Positions 24,633-32,797 of a stretch of 64,000 nt of DNA are shown one piece after another (the first letter of the stretch is position 1; each line of letters starts with the position of its first letter). This DNA is from Escherichia coli. GTDB lineage: Bacteria > Pseudomonadota > Gammaproteobacteria > Enterobacterales > Enterobacteriaceae. Location of the stretch: the NCBI RefSeq assembly GCF_030384885.1, contig NZ_CP128613.1; one strand, given 5' to 3'. The notes under the pieces are model-generated. The model was not told the DNA's origin, did no database searches, and was given only the letters and a program-made list of their open reading frames with translations. A program made the position numbers and the translations under genes.

Positions 24633-25766
24633 TTAAACCGTCAGCACCACACAACTGTCCACTTCCCAGCACAAACGCACTTCGTCGCCCCAGGTCGGTA
24701 ACCCTTTGCGATAACGATGGGCGTTTTGTAGCTGGGCGCTAATCATCTGCCCGCTTTTTAGACGAACGTGATAGACCGAAAGATCGCCGAGATAGGCAAT
24801 GTGCATCACCTCCCCTACCGCGAAGTTACAACCATTGGCGGGCGGCTCCTCGCAGAGCATGATTTTTTCCGGACGCAGCGCCACATGCACCGGCACGTTA
24901 TCGACCACCGAAGCATCTACATCAACTTTCAGTGGATGCACCAGCCCCGGCGAATAAAGCACCAGACCATCTTCCTGACGCTCTTTGAGTACACCTTCAA
25001 AGACGTTTACCGAACCGATAAATTCAGCGCTATAGCGGGTGGTCGGATGCTCGTAGATCTCTTCCGGCTCGCCAATCTGGACAAATTTCCCACGATTCAT
25101 AATGGCAATACGCCCCGCCATGGTCATCGCCTCTTCCTGATCGTGGGTGACCATCACACAAGTCACACCAACGCGCTCCAGAATATCCACCACTTCAAGC
25201 TGCATCCGGTCACGCAGTTTTTTATCCAGCGCGCCCATCGGCTCGTCGAGCAGTAATAGTTTCGGACGTTTGGCGAGGCTTCGGGCCAGCGCCACACGCT
25301 GTCGCTGACCGCCGGAAAGCTGGTGCGGTTTGCGTTTGGCGAACTCCTGCATATGTACCAGGTCGAGCATCTCGTTGACCCGGCTGGCAATTTCTGCTTT
25401 CGGCAGTTTGTCCTGTTTCAGGCCAAAGGCGATGTTCTGCTCCACGGTCATATGCGGAAACAGCGCGTAAGATTGAAACATCATATTGATGGGACGCAGA
25501 TAAGGCGGCACCTGTGACAAATCGACGCCATCAAGCATAATCTGCCCGGCAGAAGGTTGTTCGAAACCTGCCAGCATACGCAGTAGCGTGGACTTGCCAC
25601 AGCCGGATGCGCCCAGCAGCGCGAAGATTTCGCCTTTATAGATGGTCAGGCTGACATCATCGACCGCATGCTGACCATCGTAAGATTTAGTCAGATTACG
25701 GATTTCTAATAGCGGCGTCAGCGCCTTACGGGTTTTCGCCTGGGGGCGAGGGATAGCGTCATTCAC
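24633..25766 (-). CDS. potG: Putrescine ABC transporter ATPase PotG (377 aa), GTG start
   Basis: Translation (M)NDAIPRPQAKTRKALTPLLEIRNLTKSYDG with Walker A GASGCGKST; the 404-aa ORF-track frame is trimmed to match the known length. Confidence 0.85.
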   Translation of the reverse strand: MNDAIPRPQAKTRKALTPLLEIRNLTKSYDGQHAVDDVSLTIYKGEIFALLGASGCGKSTLLRMLAGFEQPSAGQIMLDGVDLSQVPPYLRPINMMFQSYALFPHMTVEQNIAFGLKQDKLPKAEIASRVNEMLDLVHMQEFAKRKPHQLSGGQRQRVALARSLAKRPKLLLLDEPMGALDKKLRDRMQLEVVDILERVGVTCVMVTHDQEEAMTMAGRIAIMNRGKFVQIGEPEEIYEHPTTRYSAEFIGSVNVFEGVLKERQEDGLVLYSPGLVHPLKVDVDASVVDNVPVHVALRPEKIMLCEEPPANGCNFAVGEVMHIAYLGDLSVYHVRLKSGQMISAQLQNAHRYRKGLPTWGDEVRLCWEVDSCVVLTV

Positions 25767-25860
25767 GGCTGCTCTCCGGCATTGAATGTGTGCAAGCGCA
25801 CCCTGATGGTGCGAATTGCCGGCGGGTGTGGTGCGCCCGTCCGGCATCTACGGCTGCGGA

Positions 25861-26973
25861 TTATTTTCCGCTCTTCACTTTGGTCCACGCGCGGGTGCGC
25901 ACACGGTCGATTTTCGGATCCTGCACTTTCAGAGTGAACAGCTTCGCACGGACATCCGCAGGCGGGTAAATACCGGGGTTATCACGCACTTCCGCGCTTA
26001 CCAGCGACGTAGCTTCTTTGTTCGCGTTGGCATAGAACACATGGTCAGAGATATGCGCTACGACATCCGGACGCAGCAGGTAATTCAGGAACTGATAAGC
26101 TTCGTCTTTATTTTTGGCATCCGCAGGCATGGCAAATACATCAAAGAATGCCATCGCCCCTTCTTTCGGAATCGAGAACGAGACATTCACGCCATTCTTT
26201 GCTTCCTTCGCGCGGTTTGACGCCTGCCAGACATCGCCCGCCCAGCCAATAGCGACGCAGATATCGCCGTTTGCCAGGTCGTTAATGTATTGAGATGAAT
26301 GGAAATAACGAATGTTCGGGCGCAACTTTAACAGCAGATCGGTTGCCGGTCCGGTGTAATCATCTGCTTTAGTGCTGTTGGGATCTTTACCGAGATAATT
26401 CAGCACGGTAGCAAACACTTCTTCCGGTGCATCAAGGAAAGAGACGCCGCAGCTTTTCAGTTTTTCCAGATTTTCAGGTTTGAGGATCAAGTCCCAGCTA
26501 TCGACGGGCGCGTTTTCGCCCAGCACCGCTTTAACTTTATCGACGTTATAACCAATCCCGGTCGTCGCCCACATATAGGGCATAGCAAATTTATTGTCGG
26601 GATCGTGTTTGGCGACCAACTTCAGCAGTTCCGGGTCGAGATTCTTCCACTCCGGCAATTTGCTTTTATCCAGCGGCTGGAAAACTCCCGCAGTCAACTG
26701 GCGCTCCAGAAAGCTGGCAGATGGAACCACCAGGTCAAAGCCGGTGCTCCCTGCCATTAATTTGCCTTCCAGTACTTCGTTAGAGTCGAAAACATCGTAG
26801 ACGACTTTAATACCGGTTTCTTTTTCAAAATTGGCCACCGTGTCCGGGGCGATATAATCAGACCAGTTATAAATGTGGAGTGTTTTTTGTTCAGCCGCGA
26901 GCGTGCCGACAGAGACGGCCATCAGAGCACCCGCAACCAGACCCGATAGCCATTTTTTATTTAAGGCGGTCAT
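25861..26973 (-). CDS. potF: Periplasmic putrescine-binding protein PotF (370 aa)
   Basis: Translation MTALNKKWLSGLVAGALMAVSVGTLAAEQKTLHIYNWSDYIAPDT; the ORF-track N-terminal extension is rejected. Confidence 0.95.
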   Translation of the reverse strand: MTALNKKWLSGLVAGALMAVSVGTLAAEQKTLHIYNWSDYIAPDTVANFEKETGIKVVYDVFDSNEVLEGKLMAGSTGFDLVVPSASFLERQLTAGVFQPLDKSKLPEWKNLDPELLKLVAKHDPDNKFAMPYMWATTGIGYNVDKVKAVLGENAPVDSWDLILKPENLEKLKSCGVSFLDAPEEVFATVLNYLGKDPNSTKADDYTGPATDLLLKLRPNIRYFHSSQYINDLANGDICVAIGWAGDVWQASNRAKEAKNGVNVSFSIPKEGAMAFFDVFAMPADAKNKDEAYQFLNYLLRPDVVAHISDHVFYANANKEATSLVSAEVRDNPGIYPPADVRAKLFTLKVQDPKIDRVRTRAWTKVKSGK

Positions 26974-27254
26974 ATCTCTTTCCTTCTGAAAGTTCGTTAA
27001 CAAACGAACAAAAGTTGTCACACTGAAAGATATGCAATATTCGTGCATATTTTTTATCGGCTCGGTGTAAGAAAAGAGAACTCTCTCCCGGCCAGCACTG
27101 CTCGCTATATAAAAGCATCGCAAGAATAACTTTAGCCAGGGTTTGAGACTATAGCTCGGATTAAAAAACGGTATTTAACAAATTTTTATGCGTATTTGCT
27201 CTATGTGATAAAGCCAAATCGGCACAAGGGAAGTGAAATAATCTTTAAGAAAAG

Positions 27255-27308
27255 GTTAAAAACAGCAGATAATTTTGCAGCACGCAGTCACTGCGGCAGC
27301 GACTGCGT
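27255..27308 (-). terminator. Candidate terminator downstream of ybjN
   Basis: Imperfect palindrome ACGCAGTCACTGCGGCAGCGACTGCGT followed on the minus strand by a U-rich tract. Confidence 0.4.
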
Positions 27309-27323
27309 ACTCGAAAGGAGTTA

Positions 27324-27800
27324 TCAGTGGAGGAAATAGTTTTCGGTAACGTTGTTTTGCCCTTCATCGTCAGTCGGTAACAGCAGTTGATGGGCATTAG
27401 CTTCAAGAATGACCATCGAAATCTGCTCTTCGCTCTGACGCACGAACCATGCAAACTGCTCATAGGTTACGCCCTGCATAACGGATAAAGACTGGCAAAC
27501 CACCAGCTTTGGCAGATTATCATCCTGCATATCAAGAAATGCTTTCACGGTCAGCGAACTGGCATTGATGGCTGATAAATCCGCCGCCAGCGGCAATACG
27601 GCTGAAGGTCGGACTTCCGCCATGGCAGAAAACAGGATCGTGTTATCGATCAGATCGATTTTGGCATCAAAGACACCGTCGAAATTCTGCATATGGGGCA
27701 GATGCAGAGCCTGACAGTTATCACATTCAAAAAAACTCATCCCCAGGTCATCGAGCCATTGACGCAACGTATCCAGACCAGGAACGACCAGCGATGTCAT
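27324..27800 (-). CDS. ybjN: Putative sensory transduction regulator YbjN (158 aa)
   Basis: Translation MTSLVVPGLDTLRQWLDDLGMSFFECDNCQALHLPHMQNFDG. Confidence 0.9.
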   Translation of the reverse strand: MTSLVVPGLDTLRQWLDDLGMSFFECDNCQALHLPHMQNFDGVFDAKIDLIDNTILFSAMAEVRPSAVLPLAADLSAINASSLTVKAFLDMQDDNLPKLVVCQSLSVMQGVTYEQFAWFVRQSEEQISMVILEANAHQLLLPTDDEGQNNVTENYFLH

Positions 27801-27887
27801 AATTTTGTACAACCTCTTCCGATAAAAAGACCGGCACAGCTTACGCAAAAAGCGCAGGCAAAACCATGATCAGTAATGTGATTGCGA

Positions 27888-28790
27888 CTAACCACCCGTT
27901 TTCAGGCAATATTCTGTCGTGGCGTGGCGTTCGATCCAACGGATCATTTTACTCGCGATGTCGATACCGGTGGTTTTTTCTATTCCTTCCAGCCCCGGCG
28001 ACGCATTCACCTCCATCACCAATGGCCCGCGATTAGCACGCAGAATATCCACACCAGCAACGTCCAGCGCCATCGTTCGCGCGGCTTTTATCGCGATTTC
28101 ACGCTCCTGTGGTGTGATACTGGCGACGCTTGCCGCGCCTCCACGATGCAAATTGGAACGAAAATCGCCCTCTTTCGCCCGCCGTTCAATCGCAGCGACC
28201 ACTTCATCGCCAACAACCAGACAGCGGATATCGCACCCTTGCGCCTCTTTGATATATTCCTGCACCAAAATATGCGCGTTCAGACCGCGGAAAGCGTCAA
28301 TCACGCTTTCCGCCGCCTGACGCGTCTCCGCCAGCACGACACCAATTCCCTGCGTACCTTCAACCAGCTTAACCACCAGCGGCGCACCACCGACCATGTC
28401 GATTAAATCGCTGGTATCATCCGGCGAATGCGCAATGCCCGTGACAGGCAGGTCGATGCCCTGACGCGCCAGCAGTTGCATGGAACGCAATTTGTCACGC
28501 GCCCGGGCAATGGCGACCGACTCATTGAGCGGATAGCTCCCCAGCATCTCGAACTGGCGCAGTGCCGCCGTCCCATAAAAGGTAATGGCGGTGCCAATAC
28601 GCGGGATCACTGCGTCAAAATGGGGTAACTTGCGGCCTTTGTAGTGAATAGAAGACGCCGCAGGATTTATGTTCATGTAGCAAGAAAGCGGATCAAGAAT
28701 TTCAACCAGGTGACCACGCTGTATAGCGGCTTCACGCAGCCGCTTACACGAATAGAGCGTTCCATCCCGGGACAATATGGCAATTTTCAC
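27888..28790 (-). CDS. rimK: Ribosomal protein S6 glutamate ligase RimK (300 aa)
   Basis: Translation [34 protein letters not shown]; ATP-grasp. Confidence 0.95.
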
Positions 28791-28850
28791 CCTGCACCTC
28801 TCTGTCAGACCTGGTCAAAAGCCCGCGTATCATACATCGGCGTGGCGGTT

Positions 28851-29573
28851 TTAGCGCGTAGCCCAACCCTGTTTGTGCAAATAATCCAGTATAAATGGGC
28901 GGCTTTCTTTAATGATTGTTCGGCGGATATGATCGCTCCAGGTATCCCGGCGATTATTGCTGCCACGGGTGAGGTAATATTCCGCCAGCTGCTCGTCATA
29001 CTGCGCCAGTGCGTCTTTATCCAGCGGTTGATAGCTGTTTTCATGCACCAAAATGGAAGCCGGTAAACGCGGCTTAAGATCCGGATTATCCGCAGGCCAG
29101 CCAAGGCACAGCCCAAACAGCGGCAGAACATGCTGCGGTAATTTCAGCAGTTCCGTCACCGCTTCAATATTATTGCGCAGGCCGCCGATATATACCCCGC
29201 CCAATCCCAGCGATTCCGCTGCGGTTAACGCATTCTGCGCCATCATTGCCGTATCAACGACACCGAGCAACAGTTGTTCCGCCAGGCCAAGTTGTGCATC
29301 CGGACAGATCTGTAAATGGCGGTTAAAGTCGGCACAGAACACCCAAAACTCCGCCGCTTTCGCTACGTGTTTTTGCCCGCCGGTCAGCGTCACCAGTTCA
29401 TCACGTAACGCTTCGTCGGTAATGCGAATAATGCTACTGCACTGCAAAAAACTGGAACTGGACGTCGCACGGGCGCTGTTAATAATCGCCTCACGCTGCG
29501 CTTCGGAAATGGGTTCATCAGTGAAATGGCGAATGGAGCGATGGCCACAAATAAGTTCAATGGTTGGCGTCAT
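28851..29573 (-). CDS. nfsA: Oxygen-insensitive NADPH nitroreductase NfsA (240 aa)
   Basis: Translation MTPTIELICGHRSIRHFTDEPISEAQREAIINSARATSSSSFLQ. Confidence 0.95.
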   Translation of the reverse strand: MTPTIELICGHRSIRHFTDEPISEAQREAIINSARATSSSSFLQCSSIIRITDEALRDELVTLTGGQKHVAKAAEFWVFCADFNRHLQICPDAQLGLAEQLLLGVVDTAMMAQNALTAAESLGLGGVYIGGLRNNIEAVTELLKLPQHVLPLFGLCLGWPADNPDLKPRLPASILVHENSYQPLDKDALAQYDEQLAEYYLTRGSNNRRDTWSDHIRRTIIKESRPFILDYLHKQGWATR

Positions 29574-29844
29574 TATCTTTTTCTCTTTCTGAACGTGAAT
29601 ATTGCGGTGGACGGTTCATCAGCTGTGGGGCAAGACGTTTTGCCACCTGAAGAATAACCACCACCGCAGCGGGAAGCATGAGCAAAACACCGAGAAAAAT
29701 CATCAGAATCTGCACCTCTGGCCGAGAAAATGGCTCAGGCAGCGACAGGGAGCCGCTTACCGACAGCAGCGCCACCGCCAGCAACATCATTCCGATAAAT
29801 TCCAGTATCAACACGCTTTTAGGCAATTTACCGATCGCGCGCAT
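29557..29844 (-). CDS. ybjC: Small membrane protein YbjC (95 aa)
   Basis: Translation MRAIGKLPKSVLILEFIGMMLLAVALLSVSGSLSL; 3' end overlaps the nfsA start by 17 nt. Confidence 0.85.
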   Translation of the reverse strand: MRAIGKLPKSVLILEFIGMMLLAVALLSVSGSLSLPEPFSRPEVQILMIFLGVLLMLPAAVVVILQVAKRLAPQLMNRPPQYSRSEREKDNDANH

Positions 29845-30003
29845 ACGCTTCCCTCTGCAAAGTGAGCCTTCAGTCTAAAACTTTTCACTGTACTGTGTTT
29901 AACAGTTATAGCTTTTAGCAATTAATGCAACAGGTTAAACCTACTTTCAGCGAATACATTTTAGCGTGATCATTACAGGCATAAGTCTATGAGGAGAGAA
30001 ACA

Positions 30004-30261
30004 ATGCAAACCGTTATTTTTGGTCGTCCGGGTTGCCCTTACTGTGTGCGCGCAAAAGATCTGGCTGAGAAGTTGAGCAATGAACGCGATGATTTTCAGT
30101 ATCAGTATATAGATATTCGTGCGGAAGGGATCACTAAAGAAGATCTACAACAAAAGGCAGGTAAACCCGTAGAAACCGTGCCGCAAATTTTTGTCGATCA
30201 GCAACATATCGGCGGCTATACCGATTTTGCTGCATGGGTGAAAGAGAATCTGGACGTCTGA
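30004..30261 (+). CDS. grxA: Glutaredoxin 1 (85 aa)
   Basis: Translation MQTVIFGRPGCPYCVRAKDLAEKL with CPYC active site; ATG at 30004. Confidence 0.95.
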   Translation: MQTVIFGRPGCPYCVRAKDLAEKLSNERDDFQYQYIDIRAEGITKEDLQQKAGKPVETVPQIFVDQQHIGGYTDFAAWVKENLDV

Positions 30262-30270
30262 TCGTCTGAT

Positions 30271-30302
30271 AAGCCCTCGTGTTGAGGGCTTCATTGATTT
30301 TT
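30271..30302 (+). terminator. Hairpin terminator after grxA, overlapping the ybjM 3' end
   Basis: Stem AAGCCCTC / GAGGGCTT, then CATTGA and a T run. Confidence 0.55.
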
Positions 30303-30668
30303 TCTGTGCTGTGATTTAAACAAACTGCTGATAAATAAGAAACACAATGCCCCCAACGCACACCAGAACACCGCACTTAATAACCATGCCAGCTCTTGCC
30401 AGAATGAGCGCGTTGGTGAAAAAAACAGCCGCATTATGAGCATCGAACAGGGTGCCGCCAGCATTGCGCCAAATAGAGGTTTCAGGACTTCTCTACGCTG
30501 TGAAAAGAAGCTGGCAACCGCTCCAGGAAGAATGAAAAACAGCAAGCCAATTTCAGGATGCCCGGCAGCCCGAAAAGCGCCTTTCATGTGCGTCGCCAGA
30601 AAAAGGCACACCACAATGAAGAGGACAAAACAGCAGATTGCCCCCGCCCAACGTTGTTTATGTTTCAC
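30291..30668 (-). CDS. ybjM: Inner membrane protein YbjM (125 aa)
   Basis: Translation MKHKQRWAGAICCFVLFIVVCLFLATHMKGAFRAAGHPEIGLLFF. Confidence 0.85.
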   Translation of the reverse strand: MKHKQRWAGAICCFVLFIVVCLFLATHMKGAFRAAGHPEIGLLFFILPGAVASFFSQRREVLKPLFGAMLAAPCSMLIMRLFFSPTRSFWQELAWLLSAVFWCALGALCFLFISSLFKSQHRKNQ

Positions 30669-30937
30669 TCGTTCCTCCTGACACTGCGTCTATCGAACAC
30701 ATTTTTCGCCAGTGTGGCGTTCAGTAAGATAAAGCCGCTTCGCATTCCATGCTAATATAGGCCAACGCAATTCATATAGCCGTTGATACCTAATGTGATT
30801 ACACTAGTAAAATATATTGTTACTTTACTATCGTTTAGGTGCGCTGAATGAATCTGCGCCCTGAATTCTGGTAAAAAACATTATCGTAAATTACCATTTC
30901 TTTCAACAGCTTACTAGTAAACAAGAAGTTAGCCTCC

Positions 30938-32623
30938 GTGAATATAAACGTCGCCGAATTGTTAAATGGGAATTACATTCTGTTATTATTTGTGGTCCTC
31001 GCGCTTGGGCTATGTCTCGGAAAATTACGGCTTGGTTCGATCCAACTGGGTAATTCCATTGGCGTTTTAGTCGTATCGCTGTTATTAGGCCAACAACATT
31101 TCAGCATTAACACCGACGCGCTTAATCTTGGCTTTATGCTGTTTATTTTCTGCGTCGGGGTCGAAGCTGGACCGAACTTTTTTTCCATTTTTTTTCGCGA
31201 TGGGAAAAATTACCTAATGTTAGCACTGGTGATGGTTGGCAGTGCGCTGGTGATCGCCTTAGGGTTAGGTAAGCTGTTTGGCTGGGATATTGGCCTGACG
31301 GCCGGTATGTTAGCAGGCTCTATGACCTCGACACCGGTTCTGGTCGGTGCTGGCGATACACTGCGTCATTCCGGCATGGAAAGCAGGCAGCTCTCACTGG
31401 CACTGGATAATCTGAGCCTCGGGTATGCCTTAACCTATTTAATTGGTCTGGTGAGTTTGATTGTTGGTGCGCGTTACTTGCCGAAATTGCAGCATCAGGA
31501 CTTACAGACCAGCGCCCAGCAAATCGCCCGCGAACGTGGCCTGGACACAGATGCCAACCGTAAGGTTTATTTGCCGGTGATCCGCGCCTACCGCGTCGGC
31601 CCGGAGCTGGTAGCCTGGACCGACGGCAAAAATCTGCGTGAACTGGGTATTTATCGACAAACTGGCTGTTACATTGAACGTATTCGGCGTAACGGGATTC
31701 TGGCAAATCCAGACGGTGATGCCGTGCTGCAAATGGGCGATGAAATAGCGTTGGTAGGCTATCCCGACGCCCACGCCCGACTCGATCCCAGTTTCCGTAA
31801 TGGCAAAGAAGTTTTTGATCGCGACCTCCTCGACATGCGTATCGTCACTGAAGAAGTGGTCGTTAAAAACCATAACGCTGTTGGCAAACGTCTCGCACAA
31901 CTGAAGTTGACCGATCACGGTTGCTTCCTTAACCGCGTCATTCGTAGCCAGATTGAGATGCCGATTGATGACAACGTCGTGCTTAACAAAGGTGACGTTT
32001 TACAAGTCAGCGGCGATGCCCGTCGCGTAAAAACCATCGCCGATCGCATCGGCTTTATCTCGATTCACAGCCAGGTCACTGACTTGCTGGCATTCTGCGC
32101 CTTCTTTGTTATTGGGCTGATGATCGGGATGATCACCTTCCAGTTCAGCACATTCAGCTTCGGCATGGGGAACGCTGCCGGTTTGCTATTCGCCGGAATT
32201 ATGCTGGGCTTTATGCGTGCTAACCATCCGACATTCGGTTACATTCCGCAGGGTGCGTTAAGTATGGTGAAAGAGTTCGGCTTGATGGTATTTATGGCAG
32301 GTGTTGGACTAAGCGCTGGTAGCGGTATTAATAACGGCTTGGGCGCAATTGGCGGTCAGATGTTGATTGCCGGATTGATTGTCAGTCTGGTGCCAGTGGT
32401 TATCTGCTTCCTGTTCGGTGCTTATGTATTGCGAATGAACCGCGCACTGTTGTTCGGCGCAATGATGGGCGCACGCACCTGCGCGCCGGCAATGGAGATC
32501 ATCAGTGATACAGCTCGCAGTAATATCCCGGCGCTGGGCTATGCGGGCACTTACGCAATCGCCAACGTCCTGCTGACGCTGGCAGGGACAATCATCGTCA
32601 TGGTATGGCCAGGATTAGGATAA
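30938..32623 (+). CDS. ybjL: Putative AAE-family transporter YbjL (561 aa)
   Basis: Translation [46 protein letters not shown]; two membrane domains around a central TrkA-C-like region. Confidence 0.9.
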
Positions 32624-32699: not shown

Positions 32700-32778
32700 G
32701 CCACTGCTTTTCTTTGATGTCCCCATTTTGTGGAGCCCATCAACCCCGCCATTTTGGTTCAAGGTTGGTGGGTTTTTT
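32700..32778 (+). ncRNA. rybB: RybB small regulatory RNA (Hfq-dependent, sigma-E regulon, represses OMP mRNAs)
   Basis: GCCACTGCTTTTCTTTGATGTCCCCATTTTGTGGAGCCCATCAACCCCGCC... matches the RybB sequence as recalled, ends in a terminator hairpin plus T run, and lies in the expected ybjL-rcdA gap. Confidence 0.85.
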
Positions 32779-32797
32779 GTTATCTAAAATTTATCTA

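Follow-up and report, generated by a model that had tools for sequence, protein, structure and literature searches.

Operon ybjC-nfsA-rimK-ybjN and divergent grxA in an Escherichia coli chromosome: a known stress-responsive locus with an invariant gene overlap and a conserved 3′ hairpin

Introduction

The closest described system is the operon of E. coli K-12 MG1655 (b0850–b0853) with the divergent grxA gene (b0849; RegulonDB/EcoCyc). In literature derived from RegulonDB, ybjC-nfsA-rimK-ybjN is listed as one operon, with SoxS as activator under paraquat and OxyR as repressor, and further literature based on the same database places the four genes under SoxS/MarA/Rob together with OxyR. nfsA is described as part of an operon driven by the ybjC promoter, which is itself a standard oxidative-stress reporter. 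A review of the work of Paterson et al. (2002) states that a transcription start and a SoxS site were mapped, that ybjC and nfsA are coordinately regulated, and that the promoter was assigned to class I. SdsN has been reported as a stationary-phase repressor of both nfsA and ybjC, and grxA is an established OxyR-activated gene.

Here, we describe the corresponding locus in a 64-kb stretch of E. coli DNA, called the window below. It is 100% identical to the chromosome of E. coli 2013C-4282 and belongs to the E. coli core chromosome: at least 80% of the 3.1-kb locus is carried by 5402 of 5426 complete E. coli genomes, and the spacer between ybjC and grxA was found in 5412 of them.

Results and Discussion

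The gene coordinates agree between the open reading frame listing, the minus-strand sequence and the annotation that RefSeq gives for the identical record. The elements of the locus are as follows.

from 26973, minus strand: potF, downstream of ybjN
27324–27800, minus strand: ybjN, 158 aa, YbjN family (RefSeq annotation and Pfam)
27888–28790, minus strand: rimK, 300 aa with a GTG start, ribosomal protein S6 glutamate ligase of the ATP-grasp type
28791–28850, minus strand: nfsA–rimK spacer, 60 bp, candidate internal rimK-ybjN promoter (gSELEX)
28851–29573, minus strand: nfsA, 240 aa, NADPH nitroreductase A (Pfam Nitroreductase)
29557–29844, minus strand: ybjC, 95 aa, DUF1418, small two-helix inner-membrane protein (Pfam PF07214, E=7.5e-42)
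29845–30003, no strand assigned: ybjC–grxA divergent regulatory region, 159 bp
30004–30261, plus strand: grxA, 85 aa, glutaredoxin 1, divergent from ybjC
30291–30668, minus strand: ybjM, convergent with grxA

Six of the proteins match the Pfam families expected of them (DUF1418, Nitroreductase, RimK with a pre-ATP-grasp domain, YbjN, Glutaredoxin and YbjM), the first five above the gathering score. The remaining gaps are 87 bp between rimK and ybjN and 350 bp between ybjN and potF. A preliminary description of the locus had named four co-directional minus-strand genes divergent from grxA, and the open reading frames, the RefSeq annotation and the K-12 layout all bear this out. The divergent region, put there at about 160 bp, measures 159 bp, and the 17-nt overlap of ybjC and nfsA is exact. 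To call the four genes tightly packed is fair in view of the gaps of 60 and 87 bp, although ybjC/nfsA is the sole junction at which two of them overlap.

Compared with K-12, the genes, their order and their strands are the same, and the 17-nt overlap and the spacer lengths (159, 60, 87 and 350 bp) are identical, at a nucleotide identity of 97–99% per segment. The OxyR site and the marbox discussed below have identical sequences, and the three substitutions in the ybjC–grxA spacer all fall outside their core. At the protein level there are six changes in NfsA, three in GrxA, two in YbjC and one in RimK. The 350-bp ybjN–potF spacer has 12 differences, five of which are located within the hairpin that follows ybjN, with the pairing kept. 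The differences from the K-12 locus are thus allelic only. The locus is the known, curated E. coli operon, and there is no departure from the published description.

An Rfam search of positions 25000–32000 returned no curated RNA family, only one spurious sub-threshold lncRNA match. An 18-nt inverted repeat within rimK, picked up by the repeat search, was rejected because its complementarity is not kept across genera; it is a by-product of an invariant peptide.

Concerning the continuity of the operon, the terminator scan called no terminator-like site in either the nfsA–rimK or the rimK–ybjN spacer. The curated K-12 Term-seq table of 3′ ends has no entry for ybjC, nfsA or rimK, and the one 'primary' 3′ end that it gives for ybjN is the only mapped one among the four genes. 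The earlier proposal of a co-directional operon is thereby supported by the internal spacers as well as by the RegulonDB-derived literature and the reported control by the ybjC promoter. A transcript started at this promoter would cover ybjC and nfsA and then read through into rimK and ybjN, since there is no terminator between them.

One can also consider that the genes do not form one functional operon but are expressed from separate promoters, either as a ybjC-nfsA and a rimK-ybjN unit or each gene alone. gSELEX studies have located binding of the RpoD and RpoN holoenzymes in the nfsA–rimK spacer and attribute this binding to a rimK-ybjN unit. At 60 and 87 bp, the spacers are roomy enough for promoters, and rimK and ybjN each have a good Shine-Dalgarno sequence of their own. 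Gene content also varies, Erwinia having no rimK between nfsA and ybjN. However, in the RegulonDB-based literature the four genes form a single operon under SoxS/MarA/Rob and OxyR, neither internal spacer contains a terminator-like structure, the sole mapped 3′ end lies after ybjN, and read-through is compatible with an internal promoter. We therefore regard a division into separate units as very improbable.

The gSELEX binding in front of rimK does imply that the operon is probably not fed from the ybjC promoter alone. A search with the sigma-54 consensus gave no credible −24/−12 element in the nfsA–rimK spacer, the nearest matches being inside rimK, and the RpoN signal can for this reason not be tied to a sequence. 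The same search found a sigma-54-like element of potF at 27033–27048. A constitutive internal promoter before rimK would probably supply basal expression of rimK and ybjN, and the best reading of the locus is probably a stress-inducible four-gene transcript combined with such an internal basal promoter. That the operon and the divergent grxA work here as described for K-12 is very likely. For this assessment, the layout, the overlap, the motifs, the hairpin and the conservation were observed directly, and co-transcription, the regulators and the 3′ end were taken from the literature. The core promoter hexamers, the competition between OxyR and the marbox, the translational coupling and the mode of termination are what we infer ourselves.

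The preliminary description had further placed oxidative-stress promoters of both transcription units in the divergent region. The elements recognised there are listed below.

29851–29855, minus strand: ybjC Shine-Dalgarno sequence GAGGG, read from the sequence
29872–29901, minus strand: putative ybjC core promoter, read from the sequence; −35 TAAACA (29896–29901), 18-bp spacer, −10 TAGACT (29872–29877)
29908–29944, no strand assigned: OxyR-type site ATAGCTTTTAGCAATTAATGCAACAGGTTAAACCTAC, differing at 3 positions from the 37-bp consensus with its four quarter sites
29912–29931, minus strand: marbox, core GCATTAATTGCTAAA at 29914–29928, wholly within the OxyR site
29944–29973, plus strand: putative grxA core promoter, read from the sequence; weak −35 CTTTCA directly next to the OxyR site, −10 GATCAT (29968–29973)

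For OxyR, the whole 64 kb was scanned with the consensus form ATAGnTnnnAnCTAT-N7-ATAGnTnnnAnCTAT, allowing at most 3 mismatches. There is a single match, 29908–29944, compared to 0.01 expected by chance, so that the scan proposed for positions 29845–30003 gives one site and this site is unique in the window. It abuts the putative grxA −35 element. In this respect the region resembles OxyR-activated promoters of the katG, ahpC, oxyS and grxA type, where the site is 37 bp long, comprises four ATAG-type quarter sites and adjoins a weak −35 element; the difference is that the site is here common to a divergent promoter that is reported to be repressed by OxyR.

For the marbox, the 15-mer core GCATTAATTGCTAAA is identical to the site that MEME gave for the grxA<>ybjC peak in MarA ChIP-seq. 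In vitro, MarA binding to the fragment of that name was scored +++, and the grxA<>ybjC locus is also among the SoxS ChIP-exo targets. With the unique OxyR match, this exact ChIP-seq site and the OxyR activation of grxA, the presence of oxidative-stress promoters in the divergent region is supported. The marbox consensus AYnGCACnnWnnRYYAAAY has two matches with 3 mismatches between 29845 and 30003, one of which (29913–29931, minus strand) contains the ChIP-seq site; over the whole window, matches at this stringency are at chance level (145 vs 143.8 expected). Because the consensus scan is in itself uninformative, the marbox is assigned solely by its identity to the published ChIP-seq motif. The second match, at 29897–29915, overlaps the putative −35 element; it has no experimental support and was not adopted. 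This marbox-like match is better conserved in Citrobacter and Salmonella than the adopted marbox.

The arrangement resembles that of the mar/sox/rob promoters in that a 20-bp asymmetric marbox would be located upstream of the putative −35 element at a distance of about 10 bp, and in that the site is bound by MarA both in vivo and in vitro. As we read it, the marbox consensus runs the same way as ybjC, its GCA element being distal, and it ends about 10 bp upstream of the putative −35 element. The earlier promoter mapping, by contrast, reportedly placed the ybjC marbox in reverse orientation, class I. Both the class of the marbox and the hexamers of the two promoters are here putative assignments from reading the sequence.

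With this geometry, MarA, SoxS or Rob at the marbox (about −47 to −66) would activate a single stress-responsive ybjC promoter. Oxidised OxyR on the 37-bp site would activate grxA, and its occupation of the marbox would at the same time damp ybjC-nfsA. Since the marbox is nested in the OxyR site, occupancy by OxyR would explain the recorded repression of ybjC-nfsA, and occlusion of the marbox would be a simple model of this repression, suggested by the nested sites.

A generic sigma-70 scan missed the ybjC promoter as well as that of grxA. Its three promoter-like matches do not exceed the shuffle level; the two promoters would be missed because they are activator-dependent and have poor −35 elements. 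In a cross-genus alignment of 39 spacers, the blocks of OxyR quarter sites and both −10 hexamers are conserved, the ybjC −10 aligning with conserved TAnAnT hexamers of other genera, and for the grxA promoter the ATnAT and GAAAG blocks are conserved. The marbox sequence of E. coli is conserved neither in Citrobacter, Salmonella and Klebsiella nor in some other Escherichia species in this alignment. An apparent spacer of 285 bp at one locus (L005) turned out to be an artefact of a truncated tblastn match to GrxA and was discarded.

Where ybjC is deleted, as in C. sedlakii and Enterobacter, the same block of OxyR site and −10 element stands directly before nfsA. In C. sedlakii the deletion is clean, with the promoter block still in place before nfsA together with the final ~45 nt of ybjC, and the layout in Enterobacter is the same. 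As the block is kept before nfsA without ybjC, the comparison indicates that the ybjC promoter would serve as the nfsA promoter throughout the family, with ybjC being dispensable.

The junction of the two genes is a single feature.

29557–29573, minus strand: ybjC/nfsA overlap, 17 nt, ATGACGCCAACCATTGA, the same in K-12

The TGA stop codon of ybjC is formed by the nfsA codons for Ile5 and Glu6 (ATT GAA). For a comparative view, species-representative genomes were searched with NfsA, which gave 80 Enterobacteriaceae loci. A YbjC homologue is present at 42 of the 80; each of these 42 has an overlap of exactly 17 nt, with YbjC identities down to 41–65%. The stop is TGA in 40 of the 42 and TAA in two C. 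amalonaticus-type genomes, where residue 6 of NfsA has become Asn. At the other 38 loci no YbjC-like open reading frame was found and nfsA is directly divergent from grxA; Enterobacter, Lelliottia, Leclercia, Kosakonia and Siccibacter are among them.

The predicted Shine-Dalgarno–anti-Shine-Dalgarno energy of nfsA, −2.9 kcal/mol, is the weakest in the operon, the values for ybjC, rimK and ybjN being −6.3, −10.1 and −7.0 kcal/mol, respectively. Because ybjC ends 17 nt inside nfsA and the nfsA Shine-Dalgarno sequence is very weak, the synthesis of NfsA would probably be coupled in part to ribosomes that finish ybjC. The upstream stop inside the downstream frame, the weak downstream Shine-Dalgarno sequence and the conservation of the overlap are all features of translationally coupled overlapping pairs. 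The present case differs in that such overlaps commonly measure 1 or 4 nt rather than 17 nt, that many genera can do without the upstream gene, and that the coupling is predicted.

The overlap could on the other hand be functionless, a passive by-product of the conserved N-terminus of NfsA (MTPTI-D/E), whose codons ATT GAN hold a stop in the ybjC frame. The nfsA codons dictate the last residues of YbjC. ATTGA is still found at the same place in 29 of the 38 genomes without ybjC, which means that the stop is to a large extent present by default, and repeated losses of ybjC have left nfsA in place. What a passive overlap accounts for less well is the distribution of the Ile5 codon: it is ATT in 42/42 genomes with ybjC compared to 29/38 without it, ATC or ATA thus occurring in none of the former and in nine of the latter (Fisher p = 0.0007, a statistic that ignores shared ancestry). 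In C. amalonaticus, moreover, the stop has changed from TGA to TAA without moving, the price being a change to Asn in NfsA. The weak nfsA Shine-Dalgarno sequence is also stronger in lineages where ybjC is absent (median −4.9 vs −2.9, p=0.001, phylogenetic non-independence being ignored). A functionless overlap is in our judgement quite conceivable, although somewhat less likely than not. The comparative results on the codon and on the Shine-Dalgarno sequence point toward translational coupling of ybjC and nfsA. Such coupling is clearly not essential, because species without ybjC express nfsA with a Shine-Dalgarno sequence that is still weak.

At the other end of the operon, the preliminary description had noted a terminator-like palindrome after ybjN. 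It is given here together with the terminator of grxA.

27279–27311, minus strand: hairpin 3′ of ybjN, 15 bp with a GC-rich stem and a CCG loop, 12 nt beyond the stop codon of ybjN
30271–30291, plus strand: grxA terminator, intrinsic and canonical, with a T-run after the 9-bp stem; it overlaps the convergent ybjM at the 3′ end of that gene

The grxA terminator coincides with the primary 3′ end that K-12 Term-seq gives for this gene. As to ybjN, the palindrome is real. The 101-nt stretch after the ybjN stop has a folding energy of −29 kcal/mol (z = −5.3), and none of 200 shuffles was as stable. In 68 distinct sequences, from many genera of the Enterobacteriaceae, pairing within the core stem is kept in 92.5% of the cells, compared to 17–49% for slid controls. 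Two pairs show alternation among GC, AU and GU, and four pairs have changes on both sides. The covariation score is 0.210 versus 0.169 for shuffles, a value reached by 0 of 500, the effect being modest and the sequences related. The frequent U-G pairs of the hairpin correspond to C-A mismatches on the opposite strand. Taken together, the hairpin is a conserved sense-strand RNA structure that marks the 3′ end of the operon.

The resemblance to a terminator goes less far. The stem is followed by GCAAAAUUAUC, which is not a U-tract; the nearest U-run comes ~14 nt later, and the situation is the same in other genera. The terminator scan did not call the hairpin because it has no U-tract, and a repeat search with exact seeds did not detect it because G-T wobbles break the seed. 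In K-12, Term-seq maps the 3′ end of ybjN to 893482, which is 4 nt past the hairpin stem and equivalent to position 27275 of the window. This 3′ end is absent from the table of Rho-termination regions in the Term-seq paper.

The palindrome noted earlier is thus conserved and coincides with the mapped K-12 3′ end, but it has no U-tract. Since none adjoins it, the hairpin is not a canonical intrinsic terminator. It may still be asked whether it is an ordinary Rho-independent terminator, considering its stable GC-rich 15-bp stem, its sense-strand conservation across genera and a 3′ end that lies 4 nt downstream and is not among the listed Rho-termination regions. The sequence after the stem, with the U-run only ~14 nt on in E. 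coli and likewise in other genera, is difficult to reconcile with this, as is the missing call in the terminator scan. In addition, the 3′ end precedes the U-run, as expected for exonuclease trimming to a protective stem. An ordinary Rho-independent terminator is accordingly doubtful. The hairpin would probably be either a stem that protects the 3′ end after termination further downstream or a terminator without a U-tract, and of these two we prefer the first as the probable one, with the transcript being trimmed back as far as the stem.

Conclusions

The operon, its regulators (SoxS/MarA/Rob, OxyR and the sRNA SdsN137) and its promoter have been known for more than 20 years, and the window adds an allelic variant only. 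The refinements are small: the overlap is invariant, ybjC has repeatedly been lost with its promoter kept, the marbox lies inside the OxyR site, and a hairpin without a U-tract is conserved. These are useful at most as hypotheses for a study of translational coupling or of the 3′ end.

Two separate readings, both tentative and rather unlikely, go one step further. One concerns the ybjN hairpin, which may be a dedicated 3′-end or stability element, or control read-through towards potFGHI, instead of being a plain terminator. The other starts from the invariant 17-nt overlap and the very weak nfsA ribosome-binding site, which may mean that the main determinant of NfsA output is termination and reinitiation by the ribosomes that translate ybjC. 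Since nitrofurantoin and related prodrugs have NfsA as their main activator, the regulation of NfsA is clinically relevant. If this second reading were true, the ybjC open reading frame would be a translational gate for this nitrofuran-activating enzyme, and mutations in ybjC would be a possible route to nitrofurantoin tolerance.

Gene overlap and promoter region

We begin with the overlap between ybjC and nfsA (window 29557-29573), for which 80 nfsA loci from Enterobacteriaceae species-representative genomes (L003-L082) were compared. In all 42 representatives that carry ybjC the overlap is exactly 17 nt, and this length stays constant throughout, with YbjC identity falling to 41-65%. In two C. 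amalonaticus-type genomes (L039 and L040) the ybjC stop codon is changed from TGA to TAA at an unchanged position, and residue 6 of NfsA is consequently Asn.

The remaining 38 of the 80 representatives lack ybjC (compared with window 29557-29844; L014, L015, L017, L023-L031, L035 and others), among them members of Enterobacter, Lelliottia, Leclercia and Kosakonia. The distance from nfsA to the divergent grxA is about 175-190 bp in these loci, and nfsA is preceded by the conserved OxyR-site/-10 block that stands before ybjC in the other loci. In C. sedlakii (L035) the deletion of ybjC is clean, and the final ~45 nt of the gene remain.

Two regulatory elements are nested in the ybjC-grxA spacer:

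29908-29944, OxyR site
29912-29931, minus strand, MarA/SoxS marbox, entirely inside the OxyR site

Unlike the OxyR quarter sites, which are conserved, the marbox sequence is restricted to E. coli proper and is kept neither in other Escherichia species nor in other genera.

NfsA allele

Compared with E. coli K-12 MG1655, the NfsA of the window (28851-29573, minus strand) has six residue differences, K54E, E58D, Q72K, I117T, K141E and G187D. The RefSeq accession number of this protein lies far above those of the proteins of the neighbouring genes, which suggests that the allele is an uncommon one.

RNA structures and terminators

The following features were considered for the RNA level, the last three being Rfam matches above the gathering score:

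28280-28320, inverted repeat within rimK, 18-nt arms, -30.7 kcal/mol as RNA
30271-30295, intrinsic terminator of grxA
32703-32781, plus strand, RybB sRNA
56391-56468, minus strand, naRNA4 (REP-derived nucleoid-associated RNA)
20985-21027, minus strand, ES036

The 15-residue peptide encoded at the rimK repeat is invariant in 78 loci, but the complementarity of the arms drifts to 9-14 of 18 pairs. Most likely the repeat arises merely from the amino acids that are encoded there.

The grxA terminator reaches into the 3' end of the ybjM coding sequence, which converges on grxA. The K-12 Term-seq entry located there assigns the 3' end to grxA as primary and to ybjM as antisense.

Region between ybjN and potF

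We now turn to the minus-strand elements downstream of ybjN:

27279-27311, ybjN 3' hairpin
about 27236-27262, block TTCTGCTG..TTTAACCTTTCTTTAAAGAAT, close 3' of the hairpin
27033-27048, sigma-54-type -24/-12 element ATGCACGAATATTGCA before potF

The hairpin persists from genus to genus, with compensatory substitutions and G-U changes in its stem, but an adjacent U-tract is never present in the genera compared; in K-12, a Term-seq 3' end lies 4 nt past it. The sigma-54-type element agrees with a strong RpoN peak in the ybjN-potF spacer in the published RNA polymerase holoenzyme binding data (gSELEX), and two bases of its spacer set it apart from K-12 (AA vs TT). The block, also upstream of potF, is strongly conserved across genera; at the same position Enterobacter has a perfect palindrome, TTCTTTAAAGAA, which is imperfect in E. 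coli. This palindromic block may be a protein-binding site.
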